DNA from: Candidatus Dormiibacterota bacterium
Lineage (GTDB): Bacteria; Chloroflexota; Dormibacteria; Dormibacterales; Dormibacteraceae
Length of the DNA: 64,000 nucleotides
Direction of reading: 5' to 3'
Assembly: GCA_036844615.1 (NCBI GenBank)
Contig: DAIUFK010000001.1
Location: forward strand, 9,694 to 73,693
In this document: piece by piece, positions 2,688-39,982 of the stretch
Layout: each line of letters opens with the position of its first letter
Numbering within the stretch: position 1 is the stretch's first letter
Made by a program: the position numbers and the translations under genes
The notes under the pieces: model-generated
Databases searched by the model: none
Told to the model about the DNA's origin: nothing
Seen by the model: the letters and a program-made list of their open reading frames with translations, nothing else

Positions 2688-3480
2688 GAGGGTGGCTTAC
2701 CTCCTCCTCGAGGCCGACGACGAAGATGCGACCACGACTGTCGGTCAGCACCTCAACTGGAGACGAATAGATCGCGGACAGCGACTCTGACGTGATGATT
2801 TCGGCCGGCTTTCCCATCGCCACCTTGCCGTGGGCGACATAAAGAACGTGGTCGATGTGCCTCAACAGCGGGTTGACGTCGTGGGCGATCAGCAGGATGG
2901 TCAGCTGGCGCATGCGCGCCACCTCGCTGATCAGCTGAACGATTGCCCCCTGGTTGCGGACGTCGAGGTGGGAGAGCGGTTCGTCCATGAGCAGCAGGCG
3001 CGGGTTGCCCACCAGCGCCTGCGCCAGGAGCAGCCGCTGCTGCTCGCCTCCCGACAGCCTTCCGAGCGGTCGGCCCGCATAGCCGGTTGCCCCCACTGCG
3101 TCAATGGCTGCAACGGCAGCTCGCTCCGCCTGTGCGCGACCTGCAACACGTACGCCCCAGCGATGGCCGTCGATTCCCAGGCCGACAAAATCAAGACCGC
3201 GGAGGGACAAGTCAGGATCGAAGCTCGAGCCCTGGGGGATGTAGCCGATCTGGGGATTGCCGCGGTGGGGCGGTTGGCCGAGCACCTCGAGGCGGCCGGC
3301 GGTGGCAGGCAGCTGGCCGAGGATCATCCTTATCAGCGTCGTTTTGCCACCGCCGTTGGGCCCGAGGATGGCGGTGAAAGAGCCTGTCGGGATCGAAAAG
3401 CCTGCGCCCGACCAGATCACCCGGCTTCCGTAGCCGGCGGACAGATCCCGTGCAACGACGGCTGCGGCGGGGTCTTTCAC
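2680..3480 (-). CDS. znuC: metal ABC transporter ATP-binding protein (ZnuC-like)
   Basis: Walker A GPNGGGKTT, signature LSGGEQQR and Walker B LLLMDEP. It overlaps the binding-protein gene by 4 nt. Confidence 0.9.
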   Translation of the reverse strand: MKDPAAAVVARDLSAGYGSRVIWSGAGFSIPTGSFTAILGPNGGGKTTLIRMILGQLPATAGRLEVLGQPPHRGNPQIGYIPQGSSFDPDLSLRGLDFVGLGIDGHRWGVRVAGRAQAERAAVAAIDAVGATGYAGRPLGRLSGGEQQRLLLAQALVGNPRLLLMDEPLSHLDVRNQGAIVQLISEVARMRQLTILLIAHDVNPLLRHIDHVLYVAHGKVAMGKPAEIITSESLSAIYSSPVEVLTDSRGRIFVVGLEEEVSHPHG

Positions 3481-4376
3481 GACGACCCGACGGTAAGGGC
3501 GTTTTCCAGGCTGACCAGCTGCCGCAGCTGCCAGTCCTGGAAGGTCGAGGTGTCAGGCTGAAGCGTCTCGGAAATACCCACCACTGGGATGTGGTTCGCG
3601 ATCGCCAGGTTCTTCATGTTCGTCGTGATCGAGGTTGCGGTCTGGACGTTGTACACGAGGACCTTGATCTGCCTGTTCGTGATCTGGTCCTGGAAGGCGG
3701 CAACTGCGCTCGCAGGTGGGTCGTTGCCCTCGGACACCGCCTGCATGAACTCGGCAGGAGAGATGAGGTTGAGGCCTGTCGCGTTCGCCGTGTAGGCAAA
3801 GACGCTCTCGGTTGAACCGACAGGCTTGACGACGAACTTGGCTTTGATCTCTGCGATCCGGTCGAGGTACGGCTTCACAGCGCTCGCAAAGGTCCCGCGC
3901 TGCTGGTCGAAGTAGGCAGCGTCCGCTGGATCGATCGATTTGTAGATAGCGGTGATCCGGTCGGCGACGTTGATCACGTAATCGGGGTAGTACCAGAAGT
4001 GGGGGTTGTCGCCAGGCTTCTTGCCGAGAAGGGCTGCAACTGTCAGCACCTGACGGTGGCTGCTCGGATTGGCGGCGAGAAGCTTCTGGCCCCAGTCGTC
4101 ATACCCCGCTCCATTCAGGATCACGAGCGCGGCGTCGGCGAACGCTCGGGCGTCGTTCGTGCTGCTCTCGTACTCATGGGGGTCGGCATTGGGGTCGGAG
4201 ACGACGCTTTGAACGTCCGCCTTGGCGCCACCGAGCTGGACCGCGATGCTGCCCCAGAAATTTTCAGCTGCCACCACTTTGACCAACCCGGACTGAGACT
4301 CCGCCGTGCTCTCCGCGCAGGCCGCACTTGCGAGCGCCAAGGCGACGGCGACCATCACCGACCCTGCCGTTCGCAT
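3477..4376 (-). CDS. znuA: metal ABC transporter substrate-binding lipoprotein (ZnuA/TroA family)
   Basis: Likely start MRTAGSVMVAVALALASAAC (lipobox-like) at 4376. The body matches TroA-like binding proteins (NPHFWYYP, DPHEYE). The upstream part of the track ORF is Cys/His/Arg-rich and looks like overextension. Confidence 0.8.
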   Translation of the reverse strand: MRTAGSVMVAVALALASAACAESTAESQSGLVKVVAAENFWGSIAVQLGGAKADVQSVVSDPNADPHEYESSTNDARAFADAALVILNGAGYDDWGQKLLAANPSSHRQVLTVAALLGKKPGDNPHFWYYPDYVINVADRITAIYKSIDPADAAYFDQQRGTFASAVKPYLDRIAEIKAKFVVKPVGSTESVFAYTANATGLNLISPAEFMQAVSEGNDPPASAVAAFQDQITNRQIKVLVYNVQTATSITTNMKNLAIANHIPVVGISETLQPDTSTFQDWQLRQLVSLENALTVGSS

Positions 4377-4387
4377 GCGCAACAGTA

Positions 4388-4418
4388 TTGCACAATGGCA
4401 TTGCGCATTGTGTGTGCA
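4388..4418. promoter_or_regulatory. candidate Zur/Fur operator in the divergent znuA / fur-family intergenic region
   Basis: TTGCACAATGGCATTGCGCATTGTGTGTGCA contains the palindrome CAATGgCATTG. It also has outer inverted arms TGCACAATG / CATTGTGtgTGCA, in a 60-bp divergent promoter region. Confidence 0.4.
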
Positions 4419-4436
4419 TATGGCTATAGTTGAGGT

Positions 4437-4844
4437 GTGGCCCCGCCAAGTCCGATCCGCGACAGAGTCAGGCTCCTGTTCGCAACCCCGGGCCGCCATG
4501 TCTGGTCGACCGAGGAGCTGCACGAAGCGGTAAGGGCTTCACTTGGCGGCGCCGACTACTCGAGCGTCTTCCGGGCGGTGGCGGGCATGGAGCGCGAAGG
4601 GTTGATCGACAGGATCGACCTGGCCGACGGAAAGGCGCACTACGAGCTGCGGGATAAGCACCACGACCATGTTCGTTGCGATTCGTGTGGCAGAGTCGCA
4701 GGGGTCACTGGGTGCATTCTGGAAAATGCGACCTCAGCCGTTGAGAGCGACACAGGGTTCAAGATCAGCAGCCACCAGCTGCTGTTCACGGGACTCTGTT
4801 CGGACTGCGCAAAAGGGAACGAGCCACCGTCGTGGCGGGGCTAG
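4437..4844 (+). CDS. zur: Fur-family transcriptional regulator, probably Zur
   Basis: 135 aa with a winged-helix N-terminus, HHDHVRCDSCGR and a C-terminal CSDC (C-x2-C pairs of Fur-family structural Zn sites). It is divergent from the Zn ABC uptake operon. Confidence 0.85.
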   Translation: MAPPSPIRDRVRLLFATPGRHVWSTEELHEAVRASLGGADYSSVFRAVAGMEREGLIDRIDLADGKAHYELRDKHHDHVRCDSCGRVAGVTGCILENATSAVESDTGFKISSHQLLFTGLCSDCAKGNEPPSWRG

Positions 4845-4907
4845 GAGAAAGTCAGCGGTCGCCTGACGCCGGCTCGTAGGTCTTGGGAGGGCGACGCATG
4901 CCAACTG

Positions 4908-5081
4908 TTGAGGAAGGGATTCAGTCGCAGCAGCACAACATCGAGAAGGCGTGGCCGGACCATCGATGAGCTCGTACGCATAATCGCCCTGTTCACGCAC
5001 CGCGTTCGAGTTTCAACCACCGCCGAGGTCGACTCAGAGCTCGAAACGTGGCTGCGCGCAGCCTACCTAGCTGCCGGCTGA
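4908..5081 (+). pseudogene. possible remnant of a small DUF5655/DUF4287-like gene
   Basis: 57-codon ORF ending ...THRVRVSTTAEVDSELETWLRAAYLAAG. A short ORF in another frame just upstream reads MPTVEEGIQSQQHNIEKAWPDHR. Together they resemble the N- and C-termini of one gene with the middle lost. Recognition is from memory only. Confidence 0.2.
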
Positions 5082-5168
5082 CGCCACCCGAGAGCATCCG
5101 TGCCCAACGTTGGCTACGATCCGCCCTCATGGCCCGGGGAGCCAGCGCGGCCAAGGTAATGGCGCAGA

Positions 5169-5969
5169 TCAATATGCCTCTTGAAGACCTCCGCGCCGGG
5201 CATACGCCTCCAGCAGCCTGAAGAGCGCGTAGCCGGCCAACGCGTAGAGCACGCCAACCACGACTTCGCCCGCGAGAAGGCCGCTGATGTGACTGAACGA
5301 GGCCCCGGCGGCGGCTTCGCGCGCGGCCTCGACGCCTCGGGTCAGAGGCAGTCCGTACGACACAAGCTGGATCACCTCGGGTAGGCGGCTGACCGGGAAG
5401 TTGATTCCGCAGACGACAAGCAGCAGGTAGTAGACGACGTTGGCGATGATTATCGCGTCGCGCATGATCAGCCCGATGCTGCCGAACAGCAGGCCGAGGC
5501 CCGCCGTGGTGAAGGAGATCACAAGCACGCATAGACCGAGCAACAGCAGGTTGCCGTGCTGAAGGTCGAGCCCGAAAAGAATCGCCGCCACCGCCAGGCC
5601 GACGATCACCGTCGCAATGCCGTCGATCACGTTCACCACTGCACGACTCAAAAAGGTCACGAGCCGGTTCGCGGGTGAGGCAAGGAGAATCGGCAACGTT
5701 CCAAATTGGCGTTCGTTCGCAACGGTGGCGATGACACCAAAGATGCCCGCGTTGGCAGTGAGCTGGAGGGCGTTGCCCAACGCGAAGTAGAGGGCATTCT
5801 GTCGGCCTGTGGCATACGTGCCGAGCTCGACGAAGAAAAGGATCTGCGTCACCGGCAGCAGCACCTTGTAAGCGATATAGCCTTGGACCGTCGCCCACTG
5901 GAACAGCGCCACGTACTGGAAATACGTCGAGCGCGCAAACACTCCGACCTCCGATTGAAGGCGCCTCAT
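5169..5969 (-). CDS. ABC-2 type exporter permease
   Basis: 266-aa, six-TM-like protein that overlaps the next permease gene by 4 nt. The Arg-rich 374-aa ORF 4993..6117 on the same strand, in another frame, is a shadow ORF. Confidence 0.8.
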   Translation of the reverse strand: MRRLQSEVGVFARSTYFQYVALFQWATVQGYIAYKVLLPVTQILFFVELGTYATGRQNALYFALGNALQLTANAGIFGVIATVANERQFGTLPILLASPANRLVTFLSRAVVNVIDGIATVIVGLAVAAILFGLDLQHGNLLLLGLCVLVISFTTAGLGLLFGSIGLIMRDAIIIANVVYYLLLVVCGINFPVSRLPEVIQLVSYGLPLTRGVEAAREAAAGASFSHISGLLAGEVVVGVLYALAGYALFRLLEAYARRGGLQEAY

Positions 5970-17356: not shown

Positions 17357-18190
17357 ATGCCCGCAAAGAACGGGAGCGAGCGCATCGAGGTCCGCAAGAC
17401 CTACAAGCAGTACGTAGGCGGCGAGTTCGTGCGCTCCGAGTCGGGCCGCGCCTACCGGCCCGACGGCTCAATCAATGTCCCGCGCGGCTCGCGCAAAGAC
17501 CTGCGGGACGCCGTGCGAGCCGCTCGCGGAGCTTTCATGGGATGGTCCTCTCGCACCGCGATGAATCGCGGTCAGATTCTGTACCGCGCGGCGGAGATGC
17601 TTGACGGCAGGCGTACGCAGTTCGTCGAGCTGCTCGGCGGCGGCAGGCAGGGTCGCAACGAGCTGGACGACGCAGTCGAGACACTCGTCTGGTACGCGGG
17701 CTGGACCGACAAGCTGGCGCAGGTCACCGGGACTGTCAACCCGGTTGCGGGGCCTTACTTCAACTTCACGATTCCCGAGCCGACAGGCGTCGTCGGGATC
17801 GTGGCGCCCGAGTCGCCCGCCCTGGCGGGGCTCGTGAGGCGGCTCGCGCCGGCATTGTGCGGAGGCAACGTTGTGGTCGCTCTCGCGCCCGAGTCAAGAC
17901 CGCTGCCTGCCCTCACTCTCGCCGAGGTGCTCGCGACGAGCGATTTTCCATCCGGCGTGATCAACGTGCTCAGCGGCCAGCGCAAGGAGCTGCTGCCGTG
18001 GCTCGCCGCACACATGGACGTGAACGCGATTGATGTCGGCGGCTGCACCGCCCACGAGGTCGCGGAGATTGAGAAGGCCGCCGCGGACAACGTGAAGCGC
18101 GTGGTGAAGATGCCGCCCGGCGAGCTCAGCCCGCACCTGATCACAGCCTTCATGGAGATGAAGACGATCTGGCACCCGATAGGGGTGTGA
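17357..18190 (+). CDS. truncated aldehyde-dehydrogenase-family protein (NAD-binding half only, catalytic residues absent)
   Basis: 277 aa starting 1 nt after the ALDH stop. It aligns by eye to the N-terminal and cofactor-domain half of ALDH (YVGGEFV..., GVVGIVAPESPAL, GVINVLSG). WNFP, ELGG and the Cys loop are replaced or missing. Confidence 0.7.
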   Translation: MPAKNGSERIEVRKTYKQYVGGEFVRSESGRAYRPDGSINVPRGSRKDLRDAVRAARGAFMGWSSRTAMNRGQILYRAAEMLDGRRTQFVELLGGGRQGRNELDDAVETLVWYAGWTDKLAQVTGTVNPVAGPYFNFTIPEPTGVVGIVAPESPALAGLVRRLAPALCGGNVVVALAPESRPLPALTLAEVLATSDFPSGVINVLSGQRKELLPWLAAHMDVNAIDVGGCTAHEVAEIEKAAADNVKRVVKMPPGELSPHLITAFMEMKTIWHPIGV

Positions 18191-29303: not shown

Positions 29304-29825
29304 GTGCGCCGGCTTCTTGATTACGTGAGCCAGACCACACAGCGAACCATCCACGACATCGAGCTCCCCACGCTGAGTGGAAAGCCCGAAAGCCTGGCCG
29401 CATACGCGGGCAAGGTGATCCTCGCAGTCAACGTCGCATCGAAGTGCGGTCTGACGCCTCAGTACACAGGCCTTCAGGCCCTCCAGGACAAATACTCGGC
29501 GAGAGGCTTCACTGTGCTCGGGTTTCCCTCCAACCAGTTCTTCAACCAGGAGCCCGGAAACGCTGACCAGATCCAGTCCTTCTGCAGCGTCAACTACGGG
29601 GTGACGTTTCCACTGTTCGCAAAGCTCGATGTGAAGGGCTCAAAGCAGCATCCGCTGTACGCGATCCTCAGCGACTTTCCTGACGACGCCGGCAAGGCCG
29701 GCAACGTGACCTGGAACTTCGAGAAGTTCCTTGTCGGCAGGGATGGGCGCGTCGTCCGGCGCTTCAGGCCCAAGGTGGTGCCCGAGGACCAAAGAGTCGT
29801 GGAAGCGATCGAGTCACTGCTCTAG
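29304..29825 (+). CDS. glutathione peroxidase family protein (Cys type)
   Basis: GKVILAVNVASKCGLTPQY with a TGC codon at 29445..29447, plus GFPSNQF and WNFEKFLV. Start uncertain (29271, 29304 or 29325). Confidence 0.85.
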   Translation: MRRLLDYVSQTTQRTIHDIELPTLSGKPESLAAYAGKVILAVNVASKCGLTPQYTGLQALQDKYSARGFTVLGFPSNQFFNQEPGNADQIQSFCSVNYGVTFPLFAKLDVKGSKQHPLYAILSDFPDDAGKAGNVTWNFEKFLVGRDGRVVRRFRPKVVPEDQRVVEAIESLL

Positions 29826-32321: not shown

Positions 32322-32996
32322 GTGAACCCGGTCGCCGCGTCGTTCGCCTGGCCCTTTCGCGGCGATCGTCTGGCCAGATGGTTGGTTGGCATGGTGATGG
32401 TCGTGCTGCTGCCAATCGCTTTCATACCTCTGCTGGGGTATGCGGTGGCTGCCACGCGCGCGGCCTCAGCCGATCCATCAGCCGCGCCGCCGCGCTGGGA
32501 GCTCTCCGCGCGCCTGCTGAGCGACGGCGTCTGGGTTGCGCTCGCTGTGGTTCTCGTCACGGCGCCCTTCGTGCTGCTCGCGGGCCCTATCGCGACGCTT
32601 GTCGACAACGCTCACCTCTGGCGCGTAAGCGACCCGACGCTTTCGCACCTCTACTCAAGCCTTGCAGCCGGCTTCGCTCTTGCACTGCCTTGGGGGATCG
32701 TGCTGCTGCTCTTGATGCCGCATGCGACAGTCCGCTTTGCAGCCACAGGGCGCCCGCTCGACCTGTTCGATTTTCCGTCTGCACTTCGTGGTATCGGCAG
32801 CGATTTCGGAACGTGGAACCTTGCGGCAGCCGCGATCGTCACCGCGTGGGCGGTCGCGCTCGCATGCGTCGGACTGCTCTGCGTCGGCATCGTGCCAGGT
32901 GTTTTCTACGCCATCCTTGTCAGCGCACATGCCTGCGCCGCGCTCGACCATAGGAGCCGCCAAGGGACCCAGGTTGAAAGTCCAACCGCTAGGTGA
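32322..32996 (+). CDS. DUF4013-like integral membrane protein
   Basis: FAWPFRGDRLARWLVGMVMVVLLPIAFIPLLGYAV...PPRW, then further TM segments. GTG start. Confidence 0.6.
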   Translation: MNPVAASFAWPFRGDRLARWLVGMVMVVLLPIAFIPLLGYAVAATRAASADPSAAPPRWELSARLLSDGVWVALAVVLVTAPFVLLAGPIATLVDNAHLWRVSDPTLSHLYSSLAAGFALALPWGIVLLLLMPHATVRFAATGRPLDLFDFPSALRGIGSDFGTWNLAAAAIVTAWAVALACVGLLCVGIVPGVFYAILVSAHACAALDHRSRQGTQVESPTAR

Positions 32997-33600
32997 CAGC
33001 GCGCTGCTGGCTGAGCTCGGCACGCGACTCGATACCGCTCTGAACACACGCGCCATCGCGCTGGCAGCCGCGCTGAAAAAGCGGCGCGACGTGCGGCAAG
33101 CCCTGGCGGGCTATGCAAGCGTGACAGTGCAGTTCGATCCCGACCAGGCGACTCATGCCTCGCTGGCTGCGGCGATCAAGAGGCTCGCCGTCAAGCGCCC
33201 GCCGATGGCTGAGCCCGGAAGGCTGCACCGCATCCCTGTGACCTATGACGGCCCTGACATGGTGGAGGTCGCCGACCGGCTCAAGCTCTCACGCGAGGAG
33301 ATCATCGAGCTCCACACACGGCCTATCTACCGCGTCTTCCTGGTGGGCTTCGTGCCCGGATGGGCTTACCTCGGTCCCTTGCCGGAGGAGCTCGAGCTGC
33401 CCAGGCGCCATGTGCCGCGAACGCAGGTGCCCGCGGGGTCGGTGGCCATCGCCGGCAGGCAGTCAGGAATTTACCCGCTGCCCACGCCAGGCGGCTGGCA
33501 CCTGATCGGCCGCACCCCCGTGAAGCTCTTCCTTCCGGACTCAGACCCGCCTTGCCTGTTCCGCGCCGGAGACCGCGTCAAGTTCTTCGCGACGCGTTGA
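32974..33600 (+). CDS. pxpB: 5-oxoprolinase subunit B (PxpB; KipI/allophanate hydrolase subunit 1 family)
   Basis: LKVQPLGDSALLAEL..., YRVFLVGFVPGWAYLG and IAGRQSGIYPLPTPGGWHLIG. Start is TTG at 32974, or ATG at 32929. Confidence 0.85.
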   Translation: MKVQPLGDSALLAELGTRLDTALNTRAIALAAALKKRRDVRQALAGYASVTVQFDPDQATHASLAAAIKRLAVKRPPMAEPGRLHRIPVTYDGPDMVEVADRLKLSREEIIELHTRPIYRVFLVGFVPGWAYLGPLPEELELPRRHVPRTQVPAGSVAIAGRQSGIYPLPTPGGWHLIGRTPVKLFLPDSDPPCLFRAGDRVKFFATR

Positions 33601-34532
33601 CCGCGGTCCTAAACGTCAGGGAACCAGGACTCTTCACGACGATCCAGGACCTCGGGCGCCCGAGCGCGGTCAGCGCCGGCGTGCAGCCAGGCGGCGCGAT
33701 GGATCGTTTCGCCCATGCTGCAGCGAACCTGCTGGTGGGCAACGACCCTGGTCACGCGACCCTGGAGTGCACGTTCAGCGGACCGCAGCTCATCGCTGAG
33801 CACGCATGTCTTATCGCCATCACCGGGGCGGACTTCGATCCCCACGTCAACGGCGCGCCGGTTCCCGCATGGACCAGCCTGTTCCTCGGCGCTGGCGCCA
33901 ACCTCACCTTCGGCGCCAGGCGATCGGGTGCGCGGACTTACATCGCAGTGGCAGGTGGAATCGAGGCCGACCGCTGGCTTGGATCGATGTCCACCAACGT
34001 GATGGCGGCGCGCGGAGGCAAGCACGGCAGGCAGCTCAGATCAGGCGACACCATCTCGGTCGCAGGCGAGCCGAGAAAGCCTGCAGTGTCAGGCCGGCGG
34101 CTGCCTGAAGCGCTCCTTCCCGCGTACGGCGACCACACGCTTCAGGCGATCGCCGGCCCCCACGTCAAGCGCCTTTCCCTTGAGGGTCGCAGGCTGCTCT
34201 TCGGCGCGCCCTACAGGCTCAGCCGAGACGCCGACAGAATGGGCTACAGGCTCGAAGGGCCGCACCTCGGCATGTCAGGCGAGGAGCTGTTGTCGTTCGG
34301 CCTTGTGCAGGGAGCGGTCCAGGTGCCGCAGAGCGGCCAGCCGATCCTGCTGATGGCGGACCACCAGACCGCCGGCGGGTACCCCGTTGTCGCTACTGTC
34401 GTCAGCGCGTCGCTGCCAGTCGCCGCCCAGCTGCTGCCCGGCGACGAGCTGCGTTTTGCCGAAGCCACCATCGAACGCGCGAACGCCATGCGCAAGGCTC
34501 TCGAGGCGGCTCTCAGCTCGCTGCGGCTATGA
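33597..34532 (+). CDS. pxpC: 5-oxoprolinase subunit C (PxpC; KipA/allophanate hydrolase subunit 2 family)
   Basis: GLFTTIQDLGR, RMGYRLEG and LMADHQTAGGYP. The TTG start overlaps the pxpB stop (TTGA). Confidence 0.85.
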   Translation: MTAVLNVREPGLFTTIQDLGRPSAVSAGVQPGGAMDRFAHAAANLLVGNDPGHATLECTFSGPQLIAEHACLIAITGADFDPHVNGAPVPAWTSLFLGAGANLTFGARRSGARTYIAVAGGIEADRWLGSMSTNVMAARGGKHGRQLRSGDTISVAGEPRKPAVSGRRLPEALLPAYGDHTLQAIAGPHVKRLSLEGRRLLFGAPYRLSRDADRMGYRLEGPHLGMSGEELLSFGLVQGAVQVPQSGQPILLMADHQTAGGYPVVATVVSASLPVAAQLLPGDELRFAEATIERANAMRKALEAALSSLRL

Positions 34533-34998
34533 CTTTGCGCGCTTCATCGAGCACCAGGTCGTAGTCAGGCAGCGGCTGGTCTTTCGATCGCTCCCAAACC
34601 CACCGCACGGTGCCTGAGCTGTCGATCACGTAGACGACGCGCTTGGCCATTCCCGAGTAGCCCGCGACATCGTCGCGCCTCACTCCGTAATCGGTGACCA
34701 TGGTGCGCTCGAAATCCGCGATCAGCTCGAATGGCAGACCGCCAAGCTCCTTGGCGAAGGCCTCGTGGGAGAACACAGAATCCACGCTGATTCCATAGAT
34801 GCCGATTCCATCAGCCGCCGCCGCTTCATGCCTGGACCGAAACTCGGTCAGCTCTGACCTTCAACCACCTGTGAAATCGAGCACATAGAACAGGAACACC
34901 AGCGCCTTGTGCTTTTCGAGGGCCTCGGCGAGGGTGAGGTCGTGGCCTCCGGTGGTGGGAAGCTTGAACTCTGGCGCCTGGTCTCCAACCGACAGCAT
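34513..34998 (-). CDS. AhpE/BCP-type peroxiredoxin with in-frame TGA (34861..34863) at the peroxidatic Cys position; probable selenocysteine enzyme
   Basis: A single 162-codon frame runs from ATG 34998: MLSVGDQAPEFKLPTTGGHDLTLAEALEKHKALVFLFYVLDFTGG-TGA-RSELTEFR...ISVDSVFSHEAF... . The track reports only the part after the TGA (34513..34785). Confidence 0.6.
34832..34851 (-). promoter_or_regulatory. candidate bacterial SECIS hairpin
   Basis: The minus-strand RNA CUGACCG-AGUUU-CGGU(C)CAG starts 12 nt after the U of UGA. It has a 7-bp stem with one bulged C and an apical loop with GU about 20 nt from the UGA. Confidence 0.4.
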
Positions 34999-35012
34999 AA
35001 GAAGGAGTTTAC

Positions 35013-35819
35013 CTAGCGCTCGAGCACGTACCAGCCGGCCCGCGTGGCGCCGGTCACCCTGTAGCCCTCGGTGAATGCATCGCCAAGCGCCCGGCGAAGC
35101 GCGAGTCTCCAGGAGCGCGCCATCGCGGCGTCAGAGCGCCGCAGCTCGACGACATCCTCCGGGACCTGGCACATAAGGACGCGCGCAGATGACGGCACCT
35201 CCACCGGCTCACCCGCTGGACCCACTGAAAGCACGGCCCCCGCGCCGGCGCGGAGCAGCTCCTCGACATCAGGCTCGGAAGCGTGGCCGGCGGCGGCCAC
35301 CACTGCCGATGTTGAGTCGAGCCGCCAGCTGATGAGCAGGCGATCCGATTCCTCGCCGGCGTTGAGCCCGTCGGACATCACGCCATAGAAGTTGACGAGG
35401 TATTCCATGGCGCTCGCCCCAAGCTTGTAGAGATTGAAGTAGGCATTGCGGCGGACCAGCGGGTCGGTTGTCCATTCCACGACCTTCACGTCGCGCTCGA
35501 GGCACCAACCGCGCTGGTGCTGCTTGAGCTCGAAGCCGAGGCCCTGCACCTGGCTGTCAGCCACGATGCCAAGGATGTGGGAGTGCATGTGGAGGCCGTG
35601 CGCTGGCGTGCCGCCGAGCCACCCGACGAGCCCTCCCACCATCCGCGCCCCGACGCGGGCGGCGACCACGTAGTTGCCTGAATGCGAAAGGGCTCGAAGG
35701 ATGTCGGTGTTGACTGGCGGTTCCTCGGGGCTCTCCCAGATCGCGGTGAACAGCTCCTCCAGCTCGCGCAGCTCCTCCAGCTCGCGCAGCTCGGAGAGGA
35801 CGACTTGTGTCCGCGTCAC
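35013..35819 (-). CDS. GNAT-fold acetyltransferase-like protein (COG3375-like)
   Basis: HILGIVADSQVQGLGFELKQHQR, VVEWTTDPLVRRNAYFNLYKLG. It overlaps the pxpA stop by 4 nt. Confidence 0.6.
   Translation of the reverse strand: MTRTQVVLSELRELEELRELEELFTAIWESPEEPPVNTDILRALSHSGNYVVAARVGARMVGGLVGWLGGTPAHGLHMHSHILGIVADSQVQGLGFELKQHQRGWCLERDVKVVEWTTDPLVRRNAYFNLYKLGASAMEYLVNFYGVMSDGLNAGEESDRLLISWRLDSTSAVVAAAGHASEPDVEELLRAGAGAVLSVGPAGEPVEVPSSARVLMCQVPEDVVELRRSDAAMARSWRLALRRALGDAFTEGYRVTGATRAGWYVLER
35751..35786. repeat. perfect 18-bp tandem duplication inside the GNAT gene
   Basis: CAGCTCCTCCAGCTCGCG occurs twice, followed by a partial third copy. It encodes LRELEE-LRELEE near the N-terminus. Confidence 0.9.
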
Positions 35820-39703: not shown

Positions 39704-39982
39704 ATGGGGACCCAGCAAGAGCTAATGGCCAGGTTGAGCGCCGAGGCCGAGGGCTGCTACTCATGGTCGAATGGGCCTGGAGATCGCTACGCGCCCCACA
39801 GCCACGGTTACGAGAAGGTCCTGTATTGCGTCGAGGGCTCGATCACTTTCGTCCTCGAAACGGAGGCCAGGCGACTCGAGCTGGCCGCCGGTGATCGAAT
39901 GGTGCTGCCCGCCGGCACTGTCCATTCCGCCACGGTGGGACCTGGTGGCTGCACGTGCATCGAGGGGCGGCGCGAGCGCTGA
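39704..39982 (+). CDS. small cupin domain protein
   Basis: 92 aa with YAPHSHGYEKVLYCVEGS...VLPAGTVHSA, a cupin motif 1/2 pattern. Confidence 0.7.
   Translation: MGTQQELMARLSAEAEGCYSWSNGPGDRYAPHSHGYEKVLYCVEGSITFVLETEARRLELAAGDRMVLPAGTVHSATVGPGGCTCIEGRRER

Follow-up and report, generated by a model that had tools for sequence, protein, structure and literature searches.

A Conserved In-Frame UGA at the Catalytic Position of a Dormibacterota Peroxiredoxin Gene, Probably Read as Selenocysteine

INTRODUCTION

Does an in-frame UGA in the middle of a peroxiredoxin gene end translation, or is it read as selenocysteine (Sec)? The question is raised by a gene, here called prx(U), on the minus strand of a 64,000-nucleotide (nt) stretch of DNA from a Candidatus Dormiibacterota bacterium (contig DAIUFK010000001.1, positions 9,694 to 73,693 of the forward strand; "the window" below means this whole stretch, and positions are counted from its first letter). 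Dormibacterota are abundant in soils, permafrost, and polar deserts. A preliminary description of the window, made from its letters, had proposed that the gene encodes a selenoprotein, with UGA at the codon for the catalytic cysteine, and that it had been split by the calling of open reading frames (ORFs). We find that prx(U) is an intact gene with a conserved UGA at the catalytic position, and sequence comparison makes it very probable that it is a single gene for a BCP/PrxQ-like peroxiredoxin with a peroxidatic Sec at UGA46, which would be decoded by a SelB-type mechanism and recycled by an external thiol.

RESULTS

One reading frame with a single interruption

Two features define the gene.

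34513..34998, minus strand: prx(U) gene, complete; start ATG 34996-34998, terminal stop TGA 34513-34515, product of 161 residues.
34861..34863, minus strand: in-frame UGA, codon 46, in a T-G-G-U motif; proposed Sec codon at the peroxidatic position.

Translation of the minus strand from ATG 34998 to TGA 34513-34515 gives a single frame of 162 codons, whose sole in-frame interruption is the TGA at 34861-34863. A mechanical ORF listing cuts this frame in two, giving ORFs of 45 amino acids (aa) (34861..34998) and 90 aa (34513..34785). The read-through product, searched with the stop replaced by Cys, matched the Pfam family AhpC-TSA (PF00578) over profile positions 1 to 123 of 124, with an E value of 1.3e-31 and a score of 109.6 bits against a cut-off of 26. 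The preliminary description was thus right that there is one frame with one break, and that both flanks of the break are peroxiredoxin sequence.

The UGA is conserved throughout the relatives of prx(U)

A scan of genome collections gave 123 confirmed loci, of which the best 80 were retained, each from a different species-level genome. Their products share 67 to 91% aa identity with that of the window gene, and nearly all are labeled Dormibacterota or, in older records, "Chloroflexi bacterium". Together with the window they make up a set of 81 sequences (the window plus L001 to L080), and the genome-locus DNA totals 1.25 Mb. It had been suggested at the outset that orthologues should be compared for TGA with a conserved hairpin or for TGC or TGT; TGA stands at codon 46 in 80/80 related loci, with the same hairpin downstream (described below), and none of these species has TGC or TGT. 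We also scanned metagenomes with a fully degenerate DNA pattern for D-F-T-G-G-x-R-x-E-L-T-E-F-R, in which the x of G-G-x was TGY or TGA. At least 120 metagenome contigs carry TGA at this position, and TGY (TGC or TGT) was found there in 0 contigs. The pattern is far beyond chance, and the presumed Sec form is completely fixed in the clade, which has at least 120 TGA forms and no Cys form.

Protein databases gave a matching picture. A search with the prx product found 650 relatives, and among the best 120 of these, 117 were fragments of 90 to 122 aa that contain the part after the stop only. The other three were full-length, each with Trp at position 46; in the two that were checked, P0001 and P0002, the DNA has TGA at codon 46, and its translation under table 11 does not give the protein sequence in the database. 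With the N-terminal part as query there were 292 matches; nearly all of the 120 listed were 45-aa fragments with a common end point, and no full-length Cys-containing form was among them. Beyond the Sec clade there is a gap: in an exhaustive search of representatives, the nearest full-length proteins were at most 43% identical to P0001, and those outside the clade were 31 to 41% identical to the window protein.

Selection on both halves and use of TGA as a stop

Within the 81 sequences, the ratio of nonsynonymous to synonymous polymorphism (pN/pS) is 0.20 upstream of the UGA and 0.24 downstream, with both halves in one frame. Mean pairwise differences at codon positions 1, 2, and 3 are 0.10, 0.07, and 0.44 upstream and 0.14, 0.12, and 0.43 downstream. 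Both halves are under purifying selection as coding sequence in a single frame. Since codon 46 is TGA throughout, no other lesions are present, and selection acts on both sides of the stop, the gene is not a pseudogene.

Elsewhere in this DNA, TGA serves as a stop. It is the commonest stop of long window ORFs with high G+C content at third codon positions (GC3), ending 23 of 47, and it is the terminal stop of prx itself in 58 of the 80 sequences that have a second in-frame stop (600 nt extracted). We screened the window together with the 80 loci (1.25 Mb) for conserved, in-register, in-frame TGA codons with coding-like flanks. The screen recovered the peroxiredoxin (Prx) codon in 78 loci; everything else that it gave, in 29 loci or fewer, was off-frame noise or the normal end of a gene. 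The recoding is site-specific, since TGA is otherwise the commonest normal stop.

A separate single-sequence screen of the window flagged two further TGA codons on the plus strand, at 18188-18190 and 39980-39982, with coding-like GC3 on both sides. Their flanking peptides look like the end of one gene followed by the next in-frame gene, and both candidates were rejected; the thresholds of this screen also missed prx itself.

A conserved hairpin directly downstream of the UGA

The sequence that follows the UGA contains three overlapping features.

34835..34849, minus strand: core hairpin resembling a bacterial selenocysteine insertion sequence (bSECIS), with stem GACCG/CGGUC and loop AGUUU (34840-34844); G at loop position 2, followed by U.
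34830..34852, minus strand: extended hairpin with two or three more pairs and a bulge of 1 to 2 nt; the register is ambiguous, and the version described first spans 34832-34851.
34831..34866, minus strand: reduced synonymous variation over codons 45 to 56, a constraint at the RNA level over coding sequence.

In the alignment, the sequence after the UGA reads AGG-ACC-GAG-YTG-ACC-GAG-TTY-CGG-TC and is almost invariant from the GAG of codon 49 onward, including sites with four- and six-fold degeneracy. The core stem is identical in 80 of the 81 sequences, the single A-to-G change in the remaining one retaining a G-U pair, and otherwise only the last base of the loop varies: the apical loop is AGUUU in 70 sequences and AGUUC in 11. 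Codon choice is correspondingly narrow near the UGA, with ACC for Thr51 (80/80), CGG for Arg54 (81/81), and GGT for Gly45 (81/81), whereas all four codons are used for Thr43. Relative synonymous entropy is 0.21 to 0.23 over codons 45 to 56, compared with about 0.5 to 0.7 elsewhere, and third-position divergence is 0.17, compared with 0.43 to 0.44. This suppression of synonymous change over codons 45 to 56 therefore reflects an RNA-level constraint over the coding sequence. The same holds in independent data: GACCGAGTT[T/C]CGGTC was present in 118/118 independent metagenome matches, which had been collected with a pattern that left every synonymous codon free at L50, T51, E52, F53, and R54. Elsewhere in the 1.25 Mb, GACCGAGTT[T/C]CGGTC was absent, and only three chance-level matches with two mismatches were found.

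We compared the element with the published bSECIS model, which has a loop of 3 to 9 nt on an upper stem of 4 to 16 bp, a spacing of 16 to 37 nt between UGA and loop, a G in the first two loop positions that is usually followed by G or U, and a minimum free energy (MFE) of -7.5 kcal/mol or lower (PMC13188914, Fig. 2A). All 81 sequences agree with the model on all four counts. In 81/81 the loop is 5 nt long (3 nt if A32 and U36 pair) and the stem has 5 bp or more; the spacing from UGA to apical loop is 16 nt (alignment columns 16 to 31), within the range of the model; and in 81/81 the MFE lies between -7.6 and -10.5 kcal/mol for the 23-nt hairpin and between -8.0 and -14.7 kcal/mol for the 40 nt from the UGA. 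The hairpin is in accord with the bSECIS model, and the SECIS-like geometry ascribed to it from the window alone is found throughout the clade. The position first given for it (34832-34851, loop AGUUU) also stands, but the distance of 12 nt does not: the extended form begins 9 nt past the last base of the UGA (12 from its first), and the core begins 11 nt past it. Like bacterial SECIS elements, it lies immediately 3' of the UGA within the coding region and has a small apical loop with G-U on a stable local stem. It differs from the characterized elements of E. coli fdhF, fdnG, and fdoG in being very short, with an invariant core of 5 bp, and in that its binding by SelB is a prediction.

There is also constraint on the 5' side of the UGA (34864-34875, minus strand, codons 42 to 45), where a GGT-GGT precedes it: GGT is found at codon 45 in 81/81 and at codon 44 in 73/81, Phe42 is TTC in 80/81, and GGTGGTTGA occurs in 98 of the 118 metagenome matches. 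RNAalifold indicated a possible mini-helix of 4 bp, UUCA/UGAA, that would enclose the UGA. This constraint may represent a codon context for Sec insertion or a second small structure.

The product is predicted to be a BCP/PrxQ-like enzyme with a single redox residue

Two further codons belong to the predicted active site.

34870..34872, minus strand: Thr43 codon of the TxxU motif, active-site Thr; T in 81/81.
34639..34641, minus strand: Arg120 codon, conserved active-site Arg of peroxiredoxins; R in 81/81, an invariant column.

The best sequence matches in the Protein Data Bank (PDB) are BCP peroxiredoxins, which align end to end, the E value for 2cx3, the BCP of Aeropyrum pernix, being 8.8e-22. 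Codon 46 pairs with Cys49 of 2cx3, which we take to be its peroxidatic Cys, and with a Cys in most of the nearest full-length homologues (Ser in two), as the assignment of residue 46 to the peroxidatic position had predicted. Cys54 of 2cx3, presumably the resolving Cys, aligns with Thr51. A search of the PDB with Foldseek, using an AlphaFold2 model of the homologue P0001 (predicted local distance difference test score [pLDDT] of 76, predicted template modeling score [pTM] of 0.78, with low confidence in the active-site loop 41 to 48), gave peroxiredoxins only, BCP/PrxQ proteins being best with template modeling (TM) scores of 0.67 to 0.71 and AhpE giving 0.67 to 0.70.

There is no cysteine in any of the 81 sequences. 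The second Cys of the CxxxxC motif of atypical 2-Cys BCP/PrxQ enzymes is replaced by Thr51 in 80 of the 81 and by Ala in one. Position 39 is Val in 81/81, in place of the Pro of the canonical PxxxTxxC motif; several Cys-type relatives likewise lack the motif Pro (FYLLDW or FYVLDF). By sequence, the product is a BCP/PrxQ-like enzyme of the 1-Cys type in which Sec would be the single redox residue, a "1-Sec" enzyme, since the protein contains no cysteine at all.

In the mechanism that we propose, translation would begin at ATG 34998, SelB carrying Sec-tRNA(Sec) would bind the hairpin, Sec would be inserted at UGA46 in place of termination, and the ribosome would continue as far as the normal stop, TGA 34513-34515. 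Thr43 and Arg120 would activate the selenolate of residue 46, which would reduce peroxides and be converted to selenenic acid. Because the protein lacks cysteine, an external thiol system would have to act as reductant and recycle the selenenic acid to the selenolate.

How UGA46 is read

Several results weigh against the reading of UGA46 as Sec. ARAGORN identified no tRNA-Sec in the window, in the 1.25 Mb of related loci, or in metagenome loci totaling 0.63 Mb. The window likewise showed no selA, selB, or selD, and tblastn searches with the E. coli proteins SelA, SelB, and SelD identified none in the same genome and metagenome loci. The result for the Sec machinery is uninformative rather than negative, because all of these loci sample the same neighborhood. 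A second selenoprotein gene was not found in the sampled DNA, either by the conserved-TGA screen or by a search with the hairpin sequence. Dormibacterota are generally regarded as aerobic. Aerobes are said to have selenoproteins only rarely (PMC13188914). Our search of the literature found no paper that links Dormibacterota with selenocysteine or selenium, and the phylum is not mentioned in BSepDB or in the Secmarker paper. As for the hairpin, RNAalifold and pair counts gave no covariation support for the core, whose pairs are invariant except for one change from A-U to G-U; covariation evidence is absent because the core never varies. The alternative registers of the lower stem are paired in 97.0% and 94.4% of cells, but column shuffles do as well, and compensatory changes are all but absent. 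In single-sequence folding the 67-nt region was no more stable than shuffles (z = -0.64), and the 23-nt hairpin was marginally more stable, with 4.2% of shuffles folding equally well. No Rfam match was found in the window, nor over the element at a permissive threshold. The case for the element therefore rests on nucleotide conservation beyond the needs of the protein, together with position and geometry.

The alternative that survives best keeps the hairpin-dependent recoding of UGA and changes the residue. Dormibacterota would then have a non-canonical machinery (not SelA/SelB/SelD/tRNA-Sec), and Cys or another residue could be inserted by a dedicated suppressor tRNA with a UCA anticodon and a SelB-like factor, or by a Cys-loaded tRNA-Sec; in that case, some of the canonical Sec pathway might be missing from the lineage. 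This would agree with the failure to see Sec machinery in the one neighborhood sampled and with the lack of a literature link between the phylum and Sec, and the conserved UGA, the hairpin, and the selection would fit any hairpin-dependent recoding equally. We nevertheless consider it unlikely. Were Cys the residue, a TGY codon would suffice and no dedicated apparatus would be needed, yet the count is 0 for TGY and at least 120 for TGA; the hairpin agrees with the SelB-type bSECIS model; and Sec-peroxiredoxins with a TxxU motif are an established family (PMC13188914). A milder alternative retains Sec: this peroxiredoxin might be the main or only reason why an aerobic soil phylum keeps Sec machinery.

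Still less likely is that the UGA terminates translation, leaving a 45-residue peptide and a separate truncated Prx-domain protein of about 100 residues. Gene callers yield exactly these two ORFs, but there is no conserved restart codon for the second: the callers' varied starts give products of 90 to 122 aa, 56 of the 81 sequences have CTG at codon 50, and only a minority have Met at codon 48. The two parts always lie in one frame and abut at the catalytic residue, neither fragment has a peroxidatic residue, there being no Cys anywhere, and purifying selection acts on the N-terminal part just as it does on the remainder.

Genome-wide reassignment of UGA as a sense codon (table 4 or 25), which the database entries with Trp at codon 46 would favor, is refuted by the use of TGA as a stop (23/47 window ORFs, and prx itself in 58/80) and by the screen of 1.25 Mb, in which no in-frame TGA other than that of Prx was both conserved and flanked on either side by coding sequence, and the Trp entries themselves have TGA in their DNA and differ from its table 11 translation. 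A recent nonsense pseudogene, or a TGA due to a sequencing or assembly error in the window, has in its favor that pseudogenes are usually recognized by an in-frame stop within a conserved domain. It too is refuted: TGA occupies this codon in 80/80 genomes of independent species and in at least 120 contigs from metagenomes, and selection is purifying (pN/pS of about 0.2 on both sides); the relatives with TGC and the additional lesions in this copy that a pseudogene should show were not seen, and the nearest Cys-type protein, at 43% identity or less to P0001, is no close orthologue.

Relation to known selenoproteins and peroxiredoxins

Reading UGA46 as Sec would place prx(U) among proteins of a known kind. 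TxxU Sec-peroxiredoxins form the established selenoprotein family "Prx", assigned to PF00578 and including COG1225-type sequences from the Sargasso Sea metagenome (PMC13188914, Table 1; PMC1088965), which agrees with the earlier statement that the family is not new; the conserved motif of the family is PxxxTxxU (PMC13188914). The window gene resembles it in its AhpC/TSA fold, in a predicted Sec at the peroxidatic T-x-x-U position, in having widespread Cys homologues, and in a UGA that is followed directly by a small hairpin with a G in the apical loop. It differs in that the window clade has Val for the motif Pro (81/81) and contains no Cys. As far as it was sampled, this clade occurs only in Dormibacterota of soil, not in marine or anaerobic lineages, and no Cys-type orthologue of it exceeds about 43% identity.

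Two Sec-peroxiredoxin families are curated in NCBIfam, and the window protein belongs to neither. PrxU of Eubacterium acidaminophilum is a TxxU Sec-peroxiredoxin that has been confirmed by experiment (Sohling et al. 2001, as cited in PMC13188914). Against the PrxU model (NF040737, 233 positions) the window protein scored 46.6 bits, the cut-off being 270; a further difference is the source of PrxU, a strict anaerobe. Prx-SUH, a thiol peroxidase (NF045827), is likewise a Sec-containing member of the peroxiredoxin superfamily, but has CxxU in place of the TGGU found here, and the window protein scored 32.7 bits against a cut-off of 298. The window gene would be a further TxxU Sec-peroxiredoxin, of a kind already known, that lies outside both curated families.

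Among Cys-type enzymes, the BCP/PrxQ proteins of A. pernix (2cx3 and 4gqf) and Sulfolobus (Bcp1 and Bcp4; 3drn and 3hjp) share the length of about 160 aa and the active-site Thr and Arg; they have Cys at the catalytic position, and in the 2cx3 alignment the second Cys, five residues after Cys49, corresponds to Thr51 here. AhpE of Mycobacterium tuberculosis (1xxu) has a single redox residue and no resolving Cys, and is similar in size and fold, but its redox residue is Cys rather than Sec. The gene had been described as AhpE/BCP-type; by sequence, the best PDB matches favor the BCP/PrxQ part of this label over the AhpE part, for which the match is weaker (E = 9e-10, against 1e-21).

Annotation and significance

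In NCBI, ENA, and JGI records, the gene appears as ORFs of 45 aa and of 90 to 122 aa, in several hundred protein clusters and in every related genome examined. The locus had been expected to be annotated as a gap or pseudogene; the public records instead show two small ORFs, although the split by ORF calling is as foreseen. Public annotation of this gene is systematically wrong, and automated pipelines will keep misannotating it because no NCBIfam selenoprotein model covers it.

If UGA46 is read as Sec, selenocysteine is decoded in Dormibacterota, and a conserved antioxidant enzyme of theirs requires selenium; pending confirmation of the machinery, the users of selenocysteine would include a soil phylum that is both abundant and uncultured. 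This would be at odds with the generalization that selenoproteins are rarely kept by aerobes, and it might offer a practical hint for the design of cultivation media. Fixation of Sec in a cysteine-free protein would also provide a clean natural case in which to ask what Sec gives over Cys in a peroxiredoxin of the 1-Cys type.

Gene neighborhood

Two neighboring genes concern the subject directly.

35013..35819, minus strand: GNAT-like gene, 268 aa; marginal Pfam match to Acetyltransf_1 (22 bits); its stop lies 14 nt before the prx start.
29304..29825, plus strand: glutathione peroxidase (GPx) gene, Cys-type; catalytic TGC at 29445-29447.

On the same strand as prx(U) lie genes for MoaC, MogA, PxpA (LamB/YcsF), and the GNAT-like protein, while genes for PxpB and PxpC converge from the other side. 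Pfam annotation of these neighbors bears out the moaC-mogA-pxpA-GNAT string first described, and the nearby GPx gene does have an ordinary TGC at its catalytic Cys, as stated then. Synteny hardly varies: in 80/80 loci the GNAT gene immediately precedes prx(U) on the same strand. The GNAT-like gene is a probable operon partner of prx(U), since its stop lies so close to the prx start. Searched as a clue to the reductant, its product gave no NCBIfam or PDB match.

The start codon of prx varies within the clade, being GTG in 65 of the 81 sequences and ATG in 16. In the window, the sequence at the start (34996-35012) is GGTAAACTCCTTCTT-ATG, with no obvious Shine-Dalgarno motif. In 20 loci, a homologue of the GPx gene is found no more than 6 kb from prx(U), so that the neighborhood combines one Sec-type (as predicted) and one Cys-type thiol peroxidase.

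In L084, on the contig of the window locus, a gene of the XdhC/CoxI family adjoins an Aminotran_5 gene (3425-5300), about 5 to 6 kb upstream of prx. Aminotran_5 is the superfamily of cysteine desulfurases and selenocysteine lyases, which places a NifS-like enzyme near a predicted selenoprotein gene. Given the moaC/mogA context, the pair probably serves in maturation of the molybdenum cofactor.

Twelve loci (L009, L021, L025, L034, L035, L045, L047, L049, L057, L063, L076, and L078) carry prx(U) at 71 to 84% identity under labels other than Dormibacterota, namely, Micrarchaeaceae archaeon, Nitrosotalea, Nitrosopolaris, Eisenbacteria, Verrucomicrobiia, Gemmatimonadales, Vicinamibacterales, Acidoferrum, and Baltobacterales. 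The GNAT gene lies directly 5' of prx(U) in every one of them, and these contigs look like mis-binned or mislabeled Dormibacterota in SMAG TPA assemblies rather than cases of horizontal transfer.

The PxpB ORF (32722-33600, plus strand) is 292 aa long in the mechanical listing; its Pfam match begins only at residue 86, and in public gene calls the protein has 208 aa. The true start of PxpB is probably internal to the mechanical ORF.

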